This document shows positions 13,304 through 40,941 of a stretch of DNA of 64,000 bases, piece by piece. The notes below the pieces were generated by a model that saw only the letters and a program-made list of their open reading frames with translations, ran no database searches and was not told the origin of the DNA. Source of the DNA: Escherichia coli (GTDB taxonomy: Bacteria; Pseudomonadota; Gammaproteobacteria; Enterobacterales; Enterobacteriaceae); assembly GCF_013122565.1 (NCBI RefSeq), contig NZ_CP053258.1; one strand, written 5' to 3'. Positions within the stretch are counted from its first letter, which is position 1; every line of letters begins with the position of its first letter. The translations under genes and the position numbers were made by a program.

Positions 13304-16099
13304 ATGGAGATAATTATGAGAAACCTCTGTTTCTTACTGACGTTAGTGGCAACTCTGTTGCTCCCCGGGCGGCTGATTGCCGCCGCCTTACCGCAGGATG
13401 AAAAGTTAATTACCGGACAACTGGACAATGGCTTGCGATATATGATTTATCCGCATGCTCAACCAAAGGATCAGGTAAATTTATGGCTGCAAATTCATAC
13501 CGGTTCATTGCAGGAAGAAGACAATGAGCGCGGCGTGGCTCATTTTGTAGAACATATGATGTTTAACGGCACAAAAACATGGCCGGGTAATAAAGTCATC
13601 GAAACATTTGAGTCAATGGGCCTGCGTTTTGGTCGCGATGTTAATGCCTATACCAGCTATGACGAAACGGTGTATCAGGTGAGTTTGCCGACTACGCAGA
13701 AACAAAATCTGCAACAAGTGATGGCAATCTTCAGTGAATGGAGTAATGCCGCAACCTTTGAAAAACTCGAAGTAGACGCTGAACGTGGAGTAATTACTGA
13801 GGAATGGCGTGCCCATCAGGATGCGAAATGGCGCACCTCTCAGGCGCGCCGCCCTTTCCTACTGGCTAATACCCGTAATTTAGACCGTGAACCTATCGGC
13901 CTGATGGATACTGTCGCCACGGTCACACCGGCACAATTGCGCCAATTTTATCAACGCTGGTATCAACCAAATAATATGACCTTTATCGTGGTCGGCGATA
14001 TCGACAGTAAAGAAGCGCTGGCGCTGATAAAGGATAATTTAAGTAAGCTTCCAGCTAACAAAGCAGCTGAAAATCGCGTCTGGCCGACAAAAGCCGAAAA
14101 TCACCTGCGCTTTAATATCATTAATGATAAAGAAAACCGGGTGAACGGCATCGCACTCTATTATCGCCTGCCAATGGTACAAGTGAACGATGAGCAAAGC
14201 TTTATCGAACAAGCTGAATGGAGCATGTTAGTTCAGCTGTTCAATCAACGTCTGCAGGAACGCATACAGTCGGGCGAGTTGAAGACTATTTCTGGCGGCA
14301 CTGCGCGCAGCGTTAGAATTGCACCCGATTATCAGTCGCTGTTTTTCCGTGTAAATGCACGAGACGATAATATGCAGGATGCTGCGAATGCATTAATGGC
14401 AGAGTTGGCAACCATTGATCAGCATGGTTTTTCTGCTGAAGAACTCGATGATGTCAAATCTACCCGCCTCACCTGGCTGAAAAATGCGGTTGATCAGCAA
14501 GCTGAACGTGATTTACGTATGCTGACCAGTCGCCTGGCATCCAGCTCATTAAATAATACGCCGTTCTTGTCGCCGGAAGAGACATATCAACTTTCGAAAC
14601 GTCTGTGGCAGCAAATTACCGTGCAAAGTCTGGCGGAAAAATGGCAGCAGTTAAGAAAGAACCAGGACGCATTTTGGGAGCAAATGGTAAACAATGAGCT
14701 TGCCGCCAAAAAAGCATTGTCTCCTGCGGCTATCCTGGCGCTGGAAAAAGAGTACGCCAACAAAAAGCTGGCGGCTTACATCTTCCCAGGCAGAAATTTA
14801 TCGTTAACAGTAGACGCTGACCCACAGGCGGAAATTAGCAGCAAAGAAACGCTGGCTGAGAATCTGACATCATTAACACTTTCCAATGGTGCCAGGGTTA
14901 TTCTGGCAAAATCCGCGGGTGAAGAGCAAAAGCTACAAATTATTGCCGTATCGAATAAAGGCGATTTAAGTTTCCCTGCGCAGCAAAAATCACTTATCGC
15001 GCTGGCAAATAAAGCAGTTAGCGGAAGCGGCGTTGGCGAACTCTCCTCTTCCAGCCTGAAACGCTGGAGTGCGGAAAACTCGGTAACCATGAGCAGTAAA
15101 GTCAGTGGCATGAATACGTTGCTCTCCGTTAGCGCGCGGACTAATAACCCTGAACCTGGTTTTCAGTTGATTAACCAGCGAATCACCCACAGCACGATTA
15201 ACGACAATATTTGGGCATCGCTACAAAATGCTCAAATTCAGGCGTTGAAAACGCTCGACCAGCGTCCAGCGGAGAAATTCGCCCAGCAGATGTATGAGAC
15301 GCGCTATGCTGATGACCGCACGAAATTACTGCAAGAAAATCAGATTGCACAGTTTACTGCCGCAGATGCGCTGGCTGCCGATCGCCAGTTGTTTTCATCT
15401 CCAGCGGATATCACGTTTGTCATTGTAGGTAATGTCGCAGAAGACAAACTCGTGGCGTTAATTACGCGTTACTTAGGATCAATCAAACACTCTGATTCGC
15501 CATTAGCCGCAGGTAAACCATTAACTCGCGCGATGGACAACGCATCGGTTACTGTAAAAGAACAAAATGAACCTGTGGCACAGGTTTCACAGTGGAAGCG
15601 TTATGATTCCCGGACACCTGTTAATCTGGCGACGCGTATGGCGCTCGATGCTTTTAACGTCGCACTGGCAAAAGATCTACGCGTTAATATTCGTGAACAG
15701 GCATCTGGGGCATACAGCGTTTCTTCTCGCCTCTCGGTTGATCCTCAGGCTAAAGATATCAGTCATTTGCTGGCTTTTACTTGTCAACCAGAACGACATG
15801 ATGAACTGTTAACGTTAGCGAATGAAGTGATGGTTAAGCATTTGACTAAAGGGATCAGTGAGCAAGAACTGAACGAATACCAGCAAAACTTTCAGCGCAG
15901 CCTCGATATCCAACAGCGTAGCGTTCAACAATTAGCGAACACTATTGTAAATAGTCTTATTCAATATGACGATCCTGCAGCATGGACTGAGCAGGAGCAA
16001 TTGTTGAAACAAATGACGGTAGAGAATGTTAACACTGTCGTTAAACAATATCTTTCTCATCCGGTAAATACTTATACCGGAGTATTATTGCCAAAATAA
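13304..16099 (+). CDS. pqqL: Periplasmic M16 zinc metalloprotease PqqL, 931 aa
   Basis: Signal peptide; inverted zinc-binding motif HFVEH (M16 family HxxEH); tandem M16 domains. Confidence 0.92.
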   Translation: MEIIMRNLCFLLTLVATLLLPGRLIAAALPQDEKLITGQLDNGLRYMIYPHAQPKDQVNLWLQIHTGSLQEEDNERGVAHFVEHMMFNGTKTWPGNKVIETFESMGLRFGRDVNAYTSYDETVYQVSLPTTQKQNLQQVMAIFSEWSNAATFEKLEVDAERGVITEEWRAHQDAKWRTSQARRPFLLANTRNLDREPIGLMDTVATVTPAQLRQFYQRWYQPNNMTFIVVGDIDSKEALALIKDNLSKLPANKAAENRVWPTKAENHLRFNIINDKENRVNGIALYYRLPMVQVNDEQSFIEQAEWSMLVQLFNQRLQERIQSGELKTISGGTARSVRIAPDYQSLFFRVNARDDNMQDAANALMAELATIDQHGFSAEELDDVKSTRLTWLKNAVDQQAERDLRMLTSRLASSSLNNTPFLSPEETYQLSKRLWQQITVQSLAEKWQQLRKNQDAFWEQMVNNELAAKKALSPAAILALEKEYANKKLAAYIFPGRNLSLTVDADPQAEISSKETLAENLTSLTLSNGARVILAKSAGEEQKLQIIAVSNKGDLSFPAQQKSLIALANKAVSGSGVGELSSSSLKRWSAENSVTMSSKVSGMNTLLSVSARTNNPEPGFQLINQRITHSTINDNIWASLQNAQIQALKTLDQRPAEKFAQQMYETRYADDRTKLLQENQIAQFTAADALAADRQLFSSPADITFVIVGNVAEDKLVALITRYLGSIKHSDSPLAAGKPLTRAMDNASVTVKEQNEPVAQVSQWKRYDSRTPVNLATRMALDAFNVALAKDLRVNIREQASGAYSVSSRLSVDPQAKDISHLLAFTCQPERHDELLTLANEVMVKHLTKGISEQELNEYQQNFQRSLDIQQRSVQQLANTIVNSLIQYDDPAAWTEQEQLLKQMTVENVNTVVKQYLSHPVNTYTGVLLPK

Positions 16100-16105
16100 T
16101 AACAG

Positions 16106-16135
16106 CCCCGTCAACACATCGTTGGCGGGGATTTT
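16106..16135 (+). terminator. Rho-independent terminator after pqqL
   Basis: ccccgtcaac / acatc / gttggcgggg followed by atttt. Confidence 0.65.
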
Positions 16136-16361
16136 AGCAATATTCGCTATTTTTATGTAATAATTTTATAAATGCGTTCAAAATAATAACCAAGTACTAA
16201 TAGTGATATTTTAAGGTCTGATTTTTACGTGATAATTCAGGAGACACAAAAAGCGCATAAAAATAACAACATAAAACACCTTACCACCACCCAAGAATTC
16301 TCTATTGCATTGTTTTTTAATGGAAAAATATTATTCTAACAATATCTCACGATAAATAACA

Positions 16362-16381
16362 TTAGGATTTTGTTATTTAAA
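16362..16381 (+). promoter_or_regulatory. GAD box (GadX/GadW/GadE-type 20-bp element) of the gadB promoter
   Basis: Exact TTAGGATTTTGTTATTTAAA, about 80 bp upstream of the gadB ATG. Confidence 0.8.
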
Positions 16382-16460
16382 CCCGAGTCCTTTGCACTTG
16401 CTTACTTTATCGATAAATCCTACTTTTTTAATGCGATCCAATCATTTTAAGGAGTTTAAA

Positions 16461-17861
16461 ATGGATAAGAAGCAAGTAACGGATTTAAGGTCGGAACTAC
16501 TCGATTCACGTTTTGGTGCGAAGTCTATTTCCACTATCGCAGAATCAAAACGTTTTCCGCTGCACGAAATGCGCGACGATGTCGCATTTCAGATTATCAA
16601 TGACGAATTATATCTTGATGGCAACGCTCGTCAGAACCTGGCCACTTTCTGCCAGACCTGGGACGACGAAAATGTCCACAAGTTGATGGATTTATCCATT
16701 AACAAAAACTGGATCGACAAAGAAGAATATCCGCAATCTGCAGCCATCGACCTGCGTTGCGTAAACATGGTTGCCGATCTGTGGCATGCGCCTGCGCCGA
16801 AAAATGGTCAGGCCGTTGGCACCAACACCATTGGTTCTTCCGAGGCCTGTATGCTCGGCGGGATGGCGATGAAATGGCGTTGGCGCAAGCGTATGGAAGC
16901 TGCAGGCAAACCAACGGATAAACCAAACCTGGTGTGCGGTCCGGTGCAAATCTGCTGGCATAAATTCGCCCGCTACTGGGATGTGGAGCTGCGTGAGATC
17001 CCTATGCGCCCCGGTCAGTTGTTTATGGACCCGAAACGCATGATTGAAGCCTGCGACGAAAACACCATCGGCGTGGTGCCGACTTTCGGCGTGACCTACA
17101 CCGGTAACTATGAGTTCCCGCAACCGCTGCACGATGCGCTGGATAAATTCCAGGCCGACACCGGTATCGACATCGACATGCACATCGACGCCGCCAGCGG
17201 TGGCTTTCTGGCACCGTTCGTCGCCCCGGATATCGTCTGGGACTTCCGCCTGCCGCGGGTGAAATCGATCAGTGCTTCAGGCCACAAATTCGGTCTGGCT
17301 CCGCTGGGCTGCGGCTGGGTTATCTGGCGTGACGAAGAAGCACTGCCGCAGGAACTGGTGTTCAACGTTGACTACCTGGGTGGTCAGATTGGTACTTTCG
17401 CCATCAACTTCTCCCGCCCGGCAGGTCAGGTAATTGCACAGTACTATGAATTCCTGCGCCTCGGTCGTGAAGGCTATACCAAAGTACAGAACGCCTCTTA
17501 CCAGGTTGCCGCTTATCTGGCGGATGAAATCGCCAAACTGGGGCCGTATGAGTTCATCTGTACGGGTCGCCCGGACGAAGGCATCCCGGCGGTTTGCTTC
17601 AAACTGAAAGATGGTGAAGATCCGGGATACACCCTGTACGACCTCTCTGAACGTCTGCGTCTGCGCGGCTGGCAGGTTCCGGCCTTCACTCTCGGCGGTG
17701 AAGCCACCGACATCGTGGTGATGCGCATTATGTGTCGTCGCGGCTTCGAAATGGACTTTGCTGAACTGTTGCTGGAAGACTACAAAGCCTCCCTGAAATA
17801 TCTCAGCGATCACCCGAAACTGCAGGGTATTGCCCATCAGAACAGCTTTAAACATACCTGA
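16461..17861 (+). CDS. gadB: Glutamate decarboxylase beta, 466 aa
   Basis: ATG at 16461 with aaggag RBS (track ORF extends 23 codons upstream); [19 protein letters not shown]...; PLP-binding region [10 protein letters not shown]. Confidence 0.97.
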
Positions 17862-17881
17862 TAACGTTTAACGGTAACGGT

Positions 17882-17907
17882 GTCCCGAAACGAACCCGTT
17901 TCGGGAC
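17882..17907 (+). other. 11-bp perfect inverted repeat in the gadB-gadC intergenic region
   Basis: gtcccgaaacg / aacc / cgtttcgggac; no strong T tract. Confidence 0.6.
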
Positions 17908-18016
17908 AATTTCCAAAGTCTGTTCACTGGCATTAGCAACGGAAAATATTGTTCTGAATACGCTTCAGAACAAAACAGGTGCGGTTCCGACAGGAATACC
18001 GTTTTAGGGGGATAAT

Positions 18017-19552
18017 ATGGCTACATCAGTACAGACAGGTAAAGCTAAGCAGCTCACATTACTCGGATTCTTTGCCATAACGGCATCGATGGTAATGGCT
18101 GTTTATGAATACCCTACCTTCGCAACATCGGGCTTTTCATTAGTCTTCTTCCTGCTATTAGGCGGGATTTTATGGTTTATTCCCGTGGGACTTTGTGCTG
18201 CGGAAATGGCCACCGTCGACGGCTGGGAAGAAGGTGGTGTCTTCGCCTGGGTATCAAATACTCTGGGGCCGAGATGGGGATTTGCAGCGATCTCATTTGG
18301 CTATCTGCAAATCGCCATTGGTTTTATTCCGATGCTCTATTTCGTGTTAGGGGCACTCTCCTACATCCTGAAATGGCCAGCGCTGAATGAAGACCCCATT
18401 ACCAAAACTATTGCAGCACTCATCATTCTTTGGGCGCTGGCATTAACGCAGTTTGGTGGCACGAAATACACGGCGCGAATTGCTAAAGTTGGCTTCTTCG
18501 CCGGTATCCTGTTACCTGCATTTATTTTGATCGCATTAGCCGCTATTTATCTGCACTCCGGTGCCCCCGTTGCTATCGAAATGGATGCGAAGACCTTCTT
18601 CCCTGACTTCTCTAAAGTGGGCACCCTGGTTGTATTTGTTGCCTTCATTTTGAGTTATATGGGCGTTGAAGCTTCCGCAACCCACGTCAATGAAATGAGC
18701 AATCCAGGGCGCGACTATCCACTGGCTATGTTACTGCTGATGGTGGCGGCAATCTGCTTAAGCTCTGTTGGCGGTTTGTCTATTGCGATGGTCATTCCGG
18801 GTAATGAAATCAACCTCTCCGCAGGTGTAATGCAAACCTTTACTGTTCTGATGTCCCATGTGGCACCGGAAATTGAGTGGACGGTTCGCGTAATCTCCGC
18901 ACTGCTGTTGCTGGGTGTTCTGGCGGAAATCGCCTCCTGGATTGTTGGTCCTTCTCGCGGGATGTATGTCACAGCGCAGAAAAACCTGCTGCCAGCAGCA
19001 TTCGCTAAAATGAACAAAAATGGCGTACCGGTAACGCTGGTCATTTCGCAGCTGGTGATTACTTCTATCGCGTTGATCATCCTCACCAATACCGGTGGCG
19101 GTAACAACATGTCCTTCCTGATCGCACTGGCGCTGACGGTGGTGATTTATCTGTGTGCTTATTTCATGCTGTTTATTGGCTACATTGTGTTGGTTCTTAA
19201 ACATCCTGACTTAAAACGCACATTTAATATCCCTGGTGGTAAAGGGGTGAAACTGGTCGTGGCTATTGTCGGTCTGCTGACTTCAATTATGGCGTTTATT
19301 GTTTCCTTCCTGCCGCCGGATAACATCCAGGGTGACTCTACTGATATGTATGTTGAATTACTGGTCGTTAGTTTCCTGGTGGTACTTGCCCTGCCCTTTA
19401 TTCTCTATGCTGTTCATGATCGTAAAGGCAAAGGGAATACCGGCGTTACTCTGGAGCCAATCAACAGTCAGAACGCACCAAAAGGTCACTTCTTCCTGCA
19501 CCCGCGTGCACGTTCACCACACTATATTGTGATGAATGACAAGAAACACTAA
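18017..19552 (+). CDS. gadC: Glutamate:GABA antiporter, 511 aa
   Basis: Multi-pass APC-family permease immediately downstream of gadB. Confidence 0.96.
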
Positions 19553-37893: not shown

Positions 37894-40800
37894 TTACGCC
37901 TTCTCGATGTTGACTAAGAACGCTTTATATTCCGGCGTTTGCGAGTTTGCATCACCGACATTCGGCGTCAGAGTGTTAGCGATATAACCTTTACGCGCGA
38001 CACCCTCAAAGCCCCAGTGGATCGGAATACCCACCGTTTCAACCTGCTGACCATTTACATTCAGCGGTTTCAGACGGCGCGTTACCACCGCCACCGCGCG
38101 GATAAAGCCACGCTTGCTTGAGACAGTGACACGATCGCCATTATTAATGCCTTTCGCCGCCGCCAGCGTTTCGCTGATTTCCACAAACTGTTCCGGCTGA
38201 GCAATTGCGTTGAGCAACGCGTGCTTGGTCCAGGTGTGGAAGTGCTCGGTCAGACGATAGGTCGTACCCACATACGGGAACTGCTCTTTTTTACCCATCC
38301 GCAGCGCGTCTTGTTCATACAGACGAACGACCGGGTTAGACACCACGTTCGGATGCAGCGGGTTAGTGCCCAGCGGCGTTTCAATCGGCTCGTAGTGTTC
38401 CGGGAACGGACCTTCCGCCATTTTGTTGATGGCAAACAGGCGTCCCATCCCTTCCGGCTGCATGATAAACGGCCCGGTTGGCGTACCCGGTGCGGCATTG
38501 CCGAAGTCCGGAATATCGTTACCCGTCCACTTGCTGCCGTTCCACTGGATCAGCATCCGTTTCGGATCCCACGGTTTACCGTTGATATCCGCCGAAGCAC
38601 GGTTGTAGAGTACGCGACGGTTGAGCGGCCACGCCCAGGCCCATCCCAGCGTATTCCCCAGACCGGACGGGTCGGAGTTATCGCGGTTAGCCATCTGGTT
38701 GCCCTGCTCTGTCCAGCTACCGGTGTAGATCCAGCAAGAAGATGCGGTTGTACCGTCATCACGCAGATGCGCAAAGCTACTCAGCAACTGACCTTTCTTC
38801 GCAATCAGCACGCCATTTGCGTCATAGAGATCTTCCAGCGCATAGCCGTTGTTCTCTTTTGCCACTTCGTCAGATTGCGGTTCGTGCGGCTGCTTGTAGT
38901 TCCAGCTCATCTTCATCAGCGGTTCTACGCCTTTACCACCTTCGGCCTGGTACAGCTCGCGCAGATGATGGTAGATACCCGCCAGAATTTCGCCGTCGTT
39001 ACGCGCTTCGCCCGGCGCGTCCTGACCTTTCCAGTGCCACTGCAACCAGCGACCGGAGTTAGCGATAGAACCATCTTCTTCGGCAAAGCAGGTCGAAGGC
39101 AGACGGAATACTTCAGTCTGAATAGACGCCGGATCGACATCGTTCGACTCGCCGTGGTTCTGCCAGAAGGTAGAGGTTTCAGTCACCAGCGGATCGATAA
39201 CCACCATGTACTTCAGCTTGCTCAGGCAGCTCACCACTTTGTTTTTGTCCGGGAAGGACGCAACCGGGTTAAAGCCCTGGCAGAAATAACCGGTGACTTT
39301 GCCTTCGTCCATCATGTTGAAATACTTGATGACGTCGTAGGTCTGGTCCCACTTCGGCAGCCAGTCATAGCCCCAGTTGTTCTCTTTCTGCGCGGCATCG
39401 CCATAGAAAGATTTCATCAGGCTAACGAAGAACTTCGGATAGTTGCTCCAGTAGTTCACCTGATCAGCCAGCGTCGCTTTCGGCGTGTTCGCTTCCAGAT
39501 ACGACTGCAAATCAACCTGTTTTTCTGACGGCAGCGTCAGATAACCTGGCAGGCTGGTAGAGAGCAGGCCTAAGTCAGTCAGGCCCTGAATGTTGGAGTG
39601 ACCACGCAATGCGTTCACGCCGCCACCGGCCATACCCATGTTACCGAGCAGCAACTGGATCATCGCCATAGTACGGATGTTCTGCGCACCCACGGTGTGC
39701 TGCGTCCAGCCCAGCGCGTACAGGAAGGTGGTTGTGCGATCCGGTGCGCTGGTGGAGGCCAGCACTTCACACACTTTCAGGAAGTCGGCTTTTGGCGTAC
39801 CGCAGATGTTTTCAACGACGTCCGGCGTGTAGCGGGAAACGTGCGCTTTCAGCAGGTTCCACACACAGCGCGGATGAGTCAGTGTTTCATCGCGTTTCGC
39901 ATAGCCGTTTTCATCGAACTGATAGTTCCAGGACGATTTATCGTATTGCCGTTTTTCAGCGTCGTAGCCGCTGAACAGACCGTCTTCGAAAGCAAAATCA
40001 TCACGCACCAGCAGGCTGGCGTTGGTGTAATGCTTAACATATTCGGCGTTGATTTTGTTGTTTTCGATCAGGTAGCGCAAAACGCCAGACAGGAACGTAA
40101 TGTCCGTACCGGAACGAATAGGTGCGTAAATATCCGCCACAGAAGCGGTACGCGTAAAACGGGGATCGACAACGATCAGGGTTGCATCGTTGTTGTTTTT
40201 CGCTTCCATCGCCCAGCGGAAACCGACGGGATGCGCTTCCGCAGCGTTACCGCCCATTACCATTACGACGTTAGCGTTTTTGATATCCACCCAGTGGTTG
40301 GTCATCGCACCGCGACCAAATGTTGGAGCAAGACTTGCTACCGTTGGTCCGTGTCAGACGCGCGCCTGGTTGTCTACCGCCAGCATCCCGAGGGAGCGGG
40401 CAAATTTCTGGGTCAGCATCCCGGTTTCGTTGCTGGCACCGGAGGCACACAGCATACCGGTAGAAAGCCAACGGTTTACCGTTACGCCCTGCTCGTTCTT
40501 TTCAATAAAGTTAGCGTCACGGTCAGCTTTCATCAGCTTCGCAATACGGGTGAATGCTTCTTCCCAGCTAATGCGCTGCCATTTGTCAGAACCTGGCGCA
40601 CGATATTCCGGGTAGCGCAGACGGTTTTCGCTGTTGACGTAATCCAGCAAACCGGCCCCTTTCGGACACAGCGCACCACGGCTTACCGGATGATCCGGGT
40701 CACCTTCAATGTGATAAATCGCTTCTCTGGCGTTTTTCGCGCCATCACCCAGGCTATACATCAATAGCCCGCAACCTACGGAACAGTATGTGCAGGTGTT

Positions 40801-40941
40801 ACGGATCTCTTTAGCGCGTAATAATTTGTAGTTTCGCGCCTGAGCCAGTGCTTGCTTCGGGGCAAAGCCCAATGCCGCTACTGTTGTTCCAGCCATACCG
40901 CCCGCGCAGATTTTAAAAAATTGTCTGCGACTGACGTCCAT
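37894..40941 (-). CDS. fdnG: Formate dehydrogenase-N alpha subunit, selenoprotein; in-frame UGA (Sec) at 40354-40356, about 1015 aa
   Basis: Two adjacent same-frame minus-strand ORFs (40354..40941 and 37894..40305) separated only by one TGA; Tat signal RRQFFK at the N-terminus; molybdopterin enzyme motifs. Confidence 0.93.
40311..40353 (-). ncRNA. Candidate SECIS stem-loop immediately 3' of the fdnG UGA (mRNA element)
   Basis: mRNA after UGA: CACGGACCAACGGUAGCAAGUCUUGCUCCAACAUUUGGUC, with GACCAA...UUGGUC and GCAAG...CUUGC complementary arms. Confidence 0.6.

Follow-up and report, generated by a model that had tools for sequence, protein, structure and literature searches.

The question raised by this locus is whether the 20-bp sequence a short distance upstream of gadB is the GAD box of the gadBC promoter, and which regulators would act through it. 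A pattern search of the window, by which we mean the whole 64-kb stretch of DNA that we analysed, found TTAGGATTTTGTTATTTAAA at 16362-16381 on the plus strand with 0 mismatches and as a single copy. Permitting 3 mismatches brought up no second site in the 64 kb, and at that tolerance shuffled sequences gave 0.02 matches. The original prediction that the exact 20-mer is present upstream of gadB was therefore borne out. The distance that it gave to the gadB ATG, about 80 bp, was accurate as well, since the box and the A of the ATG (16461-16463) are separated by 79 nt, which places the box at -99 to -80 relative to the ATG.

Castanie-Cornet et al. 2010 described the GAD box as a 20-bp consensus whose centre is 63 bp from the transcription starts of gadA and gadBC, on the upstream side (PMC2887963), and the claim that the 20-mer sits where a promoter element is expected fits this placing. 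A published GAD box that differed from the 20-mer had been named as the result that would overturn the prediction. We checked this and the two agree: the GadE site characterised earlier, as cited by Seo et al. 2015, is TTAGGAttTTgTTATTTAAa (PMC4918353). In an alignment, the box in the window is the same as both the K-12 gadB box and the K-12 gadA box at 20/20 bp. At the level of sequence, every defining feature of a GAD box is present at 16362-16381. Given the exact match and the identity to K-12 and to the published site, we are close to certain that the 20-mer is the canonical GAD box of a chromosomal E. coli gadBC promoter, the putative RcsB/GadE activator site. It was already known, as a known element in a known place.

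The spacing was the same in 9/9 E. coli lineages that we sampled (79 nt from box to ATG), likewise at K-12 gadA, and was 79-80 nt in other Escherichia species. For the lineage sample, we picked E. coli genomes across the full identity range (91-98.6%) of the 361-nt intergenic region, with the box not considered in the choice, and aligned seven picks together with K-12 and the window. The alignment has 59 variable columns, 57 of them in 16100-16351 (252 nt) and two at 16382-16383. The box is invariant at 20/20 positions, and in this alignment of nine lineages nothing varies across 16352-16381 (the box with the 10 nt 5' of it) or between 16384 and the ATG. Had the box varied at the upstream rate, its 20 nt would hold about 4.5 variable sites, and the probability of zero is about 0.006. 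In this sample the GAD box is under purifying selection compared to its flanks (0/20 versus 57/252 varying positions). We also looked for the 30-mer 16352-16381, which has the box at its end, and found a match of at least 28 nt with no mismatch in 5364 of the 5426 complete E. coli genomes.

To look beyond E. coli, we used a scan of one genome per species (100,044 species, 298 Gb), which found the exact 20-mer in 11 stretches. Eight of them are from Escherichia: two E. coli representatives, Escherichia sp. E1V33, E. albertii and E. whittamii. All eight copies lie 79-80 nt 5' of an ATG that opens a protein with a gadB-type (MDKKQV) or gadA-type (MDQKLL/MEQKLL) N-terminus. The remaining three, from metagenome-assembled genomes of unrelated Lentisphaeria and Bacteroidales, have no gad gene near them and are chance matches. 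Because 298 Gb holds three unrelated exact matches, the exact 20-mer alone is no proof, but position and conservation together amount to more than chance. The scan returns exact matches only, so our claim of conservation rests on the E. coli sample and the 30-mer count. In the representatives of E. albertii and E. whittamii, we saw the exact 20-mer at a gadA-type promoter only. The same exact-match scan found no 20-mer in the single genomes of E. fergusonii, E. marmotae and E. ruysiae, and the gad promoters of these species are either absent or have variant boxes.

There are some unusual cases within E. coli. The gadB promoter region, including the box, is reported in six copies on plasmid-classed records in the complete E. 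coli set. In E. coli AR_0085 (NZ_CP029741.1, locus ~1490-1590, corresponding to ~16373-16460 of the window), a deletion fuses a truncated sulfatase-family pseudogene to the gadB promoter. The junction falls inside the GAD box, with approximately the last 5 nt kept, the exact box gone and gadB intact. This is a natural gadB promoter without the GadE/RcsB site, and integrity of the box is not universal. The most divergent gadB promoter alleles that we sampled are those of MS10711 and 81009 (91-92% identity), yet their GAD box and core promoter are exact. Both genomes have pqqL annotated as a truncated pseudogene, and the annotation of MS10711 gives gadB as frameshifted.

As for what binds the box, the published work points to the RcsB/GadE heterodimer. 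GadE alone neither protects nor shifts the GAD box, earlier reports of GadE-only binding were explained by co-purified RcsB, and the heterodimer has an apparent constant of ~10 nM (PMC2887963). When a conserved G is changed by point mutation, binding and GadE-dependent activation are both lost (PMC2887963). The RcsB/GadE biochemistry, in vitro and in vivo, was done on K-12 gadA only, with gadB included by sequence conservation (PMC2887963), and the model has been repeated in later papers. Like the canonical RcsB/RcsAB boxes, the GAD box has a left half that resembles an RcsB site, and it has a conserved G in common with the RcsB box (PMC2887963); unlike them, it is asymmetric and requires GadE as a partner.

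The original prediction had called the box a GadE/GadX/GadW element. GadE holds, with RcsB as its partner in the heterodimer (PMC2887963), but the GadX/GadW part draws on older literature and not on the current model. The ChIP-exo consensus for GadX/GadW is AKGKCTGWTWTTWWYMYVAK (PMC4918353), and 16362-16381 does not match it at up to 2 mismatches, so by its sequence the box is not a GadX/GadW consensus site. With up to 2 mismatches allowed, a motif scan gave a single match in the window, AGGTCTGATTTTTACGTGAT, with 1 mismatch at 16214-16233 on the plus strand, roughly 150 bp upstream of the GAD box; the motif is weak and 0.44 matches are expected by chance. We saw no variation in 16212-16243 in the 9-lineage sample. 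Sites of 42 bp have reportedly been described for GadX and GadW by Tramonti et al. in 2006 and 2008. The GadX/GadW sites are similar to the GAD box in belonging to the same regulatory region and regulon and in also acting on gadBC (PMC4918353), but they have another consensus, their binders are of the AraC family, and their match in the window is at 16214-16233 and not at the GAD box. We also tried the degenerate GadE motif of Seo, TTARGAWWWWAAATA, which misses the box at up to 2 mismatches and is uninformative (6 matches in the window against 4.8 expected). At the same chance-level stringency, TTAGGATTTGTAATA at 1979-1993 on the minus strand is similar to TTAGGATTTTG, the left half of the GAD box; it is ~30 nt 5' of the ydeP ATG, on the opposite strand.

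There are three other ways to read the box. It could be mainly an element of the AraC-family regulators GadX and GadW, or be shared by them with GadE, with direct activation or competition taking place there. PMC6128205 refers to Castanie-Cornet & Foster 2001, Ma 2002 and Tramonti 2002 for the view of GadW and GadX as repressors that compete for the gad box; GadX also shifts gadA and gadB promoter fragments from -173 to +77, which include the box (PMC3050690), and gadBC is in both the GadE and the GadX regulons by ChIP-exo (PMC4918353). The box is unrelated to the GadX/GadW consensus, however, and footprinting and mutation assign it to RcsB/GadE (PMC2887963). In the legend of Fig. 7 of that paper, the GadXW, GAD and RcsB boxes are three distinct elements (PMC2887963), and GadE activates gadA and gadBC more than 50-fold where GadX activates less than 2-fold (PMC4918353). 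We consider the GadX/GadW reading unlikely, and we keep it as a minor rival because of the older work on competitive binding at the gad box that PMC6128205 cites.

It is also conceivable that the box is the same at gadA and gadB, and from strain to strain, through duplication and gene conversion instead of selection on the site. The two genes are near-identical paralogues whose homology runs from the coding region into the promoter. The box is nevertheless an island: when we aligned 11 gadA and gadB promoters, it was invariant at 20/20 positions versus 3/60 upstream and 1/16 downstream. The downstream positions are the 16-nt spacer to the -35, and homology stops directly upstream of the box. 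Since a conversion tract would not skip the spacer, its divergence argues against conversion. The identity of the box in this set of 11 is partly by construction, as the species loci were found by exact-match scan, but this does not hold for the fixed spacing in those loci or for the sharp drop in similarity on either side of the box. Within gadB alone, the lineages have the same box despite differences of up to 9% in their upstream DNA, and mutation of the box abolishes activation (PMC2887963), so we regard conversion without site selection as highly improbable. We give even less credit to the box being a chance A+T-rich 20-mer in A+T-rich intergenic DNA. The intergenic region is indeed 24-33% G+C and the three metagenome-assembled genomes do have exact copies, but with up to 3 mismatches allowed the expected number of matches in the window is only 0.02, the box keeps a fixed distance to the ATGs of gadA and gadB, and it is near-universal in E. 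coli. Positional conservation refutes a chance occurrence. We found no data against the canonical GAD box reading in our analysis.

We back-calculated the transcription start by setting the centre of the box at -63, the distance given in PMC2887963. The start would be at ~16434-16435 with a leader of 26-27 nt, and the box would span approximately -72 to -53 relative to it. DNase I protection of gadA by RcsB/GadE extends from -50 to -76 (PMC2887963); transferred by homology from the gadA promoter, the footprint would cover 16358-16384 on the plus strand (-76 to -50). A putative -35 hexamer, TTGCTT, is at 16398-16403 (plus strand), 17 bp upstream of a putative -10, TACTTT, at 16421-16426 (plus strand). 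The -10 has a C before it, is conserved, and fits the start that we calculated. CTTGC is invariant in 11/11 gadA and gadB promoters.

The GAD box and the RcsB box are both reported to be conserved at gadB, with the RcsB box just upstream of the gadA -10 and strictly conserved at gadB save for a C in place of G at its left end (PMC2887963). We found this companion box as CGATAAATCCTA at 16411-16422 on the plus strand (the limits are approximate). It is identical to K-12 gadB and has the C-for-G difference between gadB and gadA as published; going by the literature and this identity, it would be the repressing RcsB site just 5' of the -10. Across 16411-16429, 17/19 positions are invariant in the 11 gadA and gadB promoters. 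The Shine-Dalgarno sequence AAGGAG can be read directly at 16450-16455 (plus strand), 5 nt before the gadB ATG, and is invariant in all of the aligned gadA and gadB promoters. A scan of 16050-16520 with the sigma-70 consensus did not call the gadB promoter and returned only a sub-chance match on the minus strand. The promoter was missed because its hexamers are weak, and the result is no evidence against it.

On the upstream side, folding gave a terminator-like hairpin 3' of pqqL at 16106-16135 on the plus strand, with a 10-bp G+C-rich stem followed by AUUUU. The hairpin (16106-16130 plus the U-tract) has a folding energy of -18.6 kcal/mol and z = -5.3, with 0/200 shuffles folding as well, and it is nearly invariant across lineages. 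It is the upstream edge of the gadB regulatory region. The A+T-rich DNA between the genes (24-33% G+C) fits the repression by H-NS in the literature (PMC2887963).

What we read directly in this strain is the sequence, position and conservation of the box and the integrity of the operon. The mechanism is carried over from K-12 by sequence identity, and from it we infer the start, the protein binding and the activation. Acid or stationary-phase signals would raise GadE via several routes, including the EvgA-YdeO-GadE cascade; ydeO is within the window at 4819-5580, and gadE and rcsB are outside the 64 kb. GadE would pair with basal RcsB, and the RcsB/GadE heterodimer would bind the 20-bp box, with its centre ~63 bp 5' of the start at ~16434. 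Once bound, it would activate RNA polymerase at the weak promoter (TTGCTT, 17 bp, TACTTT), giving transcription of gadB-gadC. GadX/GadW and H-NS would act further upstream in the A+T-rich intergenic DNA.

The box had also been taken to show that the regulatory region is intact in this strain. The box by itself cannot show this, but the full alignment supports it. Compared to K-12, the 361-nt intergenic region has no indels and 15 substitutions (95.8% identity), with 14 of the 15 located 5' of the box and one at 16383, 2 nt past its end. From 16384 to the ATG the sequence is the same as K-12, which covers the -35, the RcsB box, the -10 and the Shine-Dalgarno sequence. The substitution at 16383, a C, lies at the edge of the predicted footprint; we considered whether it was a SNP private to the strain and rejected this, with the same 40-mer found in 482 of the 5426 genomes. 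Further upstream, the A at 16250 and the G at 16323 are unique to the window within the 9-lineage sample, and the clusters CTC (16300-16302) and TAAC (16337-16340) differ from K-12.

The genes downstream are as expected for the operon, with the box 79 nt from the ATG of a full-length gadB and then gadC. Glutamate decarboxylase B is encoded by gadB at 16461-17861 on the plus strand (466 aa, with Q459H), which aligns over 1-466 with PDB 1PMM and differs from K-12 by 1 aa and 19 nt. The glutamate/GABA antiporter gene gadC is at 18017-19552 on the plus strand (511 aa, full length, annotation transferred from strain EC1515) and has 2 aa differences from K-12. The two are co-transcribed (PMC2887963). 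Directly 3' of the gadB stop, we observed a perfect 12-bp hairpin at 17881-17908 on the plus strand with a stem of the GUCCCGAAACGA / UCGUUUCGGGAC type, ~-21 kcal/mol and z = -3.6. The 155 nt of the gadB-gadC spacer are all identical to K-12 and the hairpin there has no U-tract; it may be an mRNA-stability or partial-termination element.

The original prediction used the box to confirm the start of gadB. The box is consistent with this start and makes a fair supporting argument, but the main support is the identity to full-length GadB (PDB 1PMM), the AAGGAG, and RefSeq, where annotations open gadB at the same ATG, 16461. The list of open reading frames opens gadB at a TTG at 16392 (489 aa), and there is a further in-frame ATG at 16431 (476 aa). 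Both are located 5' of the predicted start of transcription at ~16434 or at it, and neither could serve as a start codon on that mRNA. They are an annotation trap for ORF callers.

Q459H, at codon 17835-17837, is the only difference of this GadB from the K-12 and PDB GadB proteins. Residue 459 belongs to the C-terminal tail, which closes off the active site of GadB at neutral pH. If the lineage variants held anything new, those in the promoter could retune GadX/GadW or H-NS control of gadBC and Q459H could shift the pH threshold of enzyme activation, but going by the sequences we find this very unlikely. Proteins identical to this GadB and PqqL have E. coli records, QJU24247.1 (WP_171459387.1) and QJU24246.1, and are neighbours on a single contig.

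The window is fully collinear with E. coli in its gene order: ydeS/R/Q, ydeP, safA, ydeO, ydeN, ydeM, yddA, yddB, pqqL, gadB, gadC, digH, dosC, dosP. Among 5,426 complete RefSeq E. coli genomes, the best identity was 98.7% over 1-25000 and 98.3% over 25001-50000. As no complete genome is above 98.3-98.7%, the strain comes from a sparsely sampled E. coli lineage. The only Rfam match in the window is the selenocysteine insertion element SECIS_3 at 40301-40359 on the minus strand (84 bits, with a gathering threshold of 63). It is at the junction of the minus-strand ORFs 37894-40305 and 40354-40941, which are fdnG split by an in-frame UGA.

Set beside the known systems, the locus is most simply compared with the K-12 gadBC promoter, with which it shares the 20 bp, the 79-nt distance to the ATG, the sequence from 16384 to the ATG, and pqqL and gadBC on its flanks. 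It differs by the 15 substitutions in 361 nt, with no indels. The GAD box of K-12 gadBC reportedly goes back to Castanie-Cornet and Foster in 2001. The K-12 gadA promoter, in the acid fitness island, has the same 20-mer, the same spacing from box to ATG and the CTTGC and GATAAATCCTACTTTTTT core, but it is at another locus, its upstream DNA cannot be aligned, its spacer from box to -35 has diverged, and its RcsB box opens with G instead of C.

What we have here is of value as an annotation check only. Because approximately 99% of complete E. coli genomes have the same sequence in the same place, it does not extend what is known of the Gad system, and for a specialist only the absence of the box would be a surprise.
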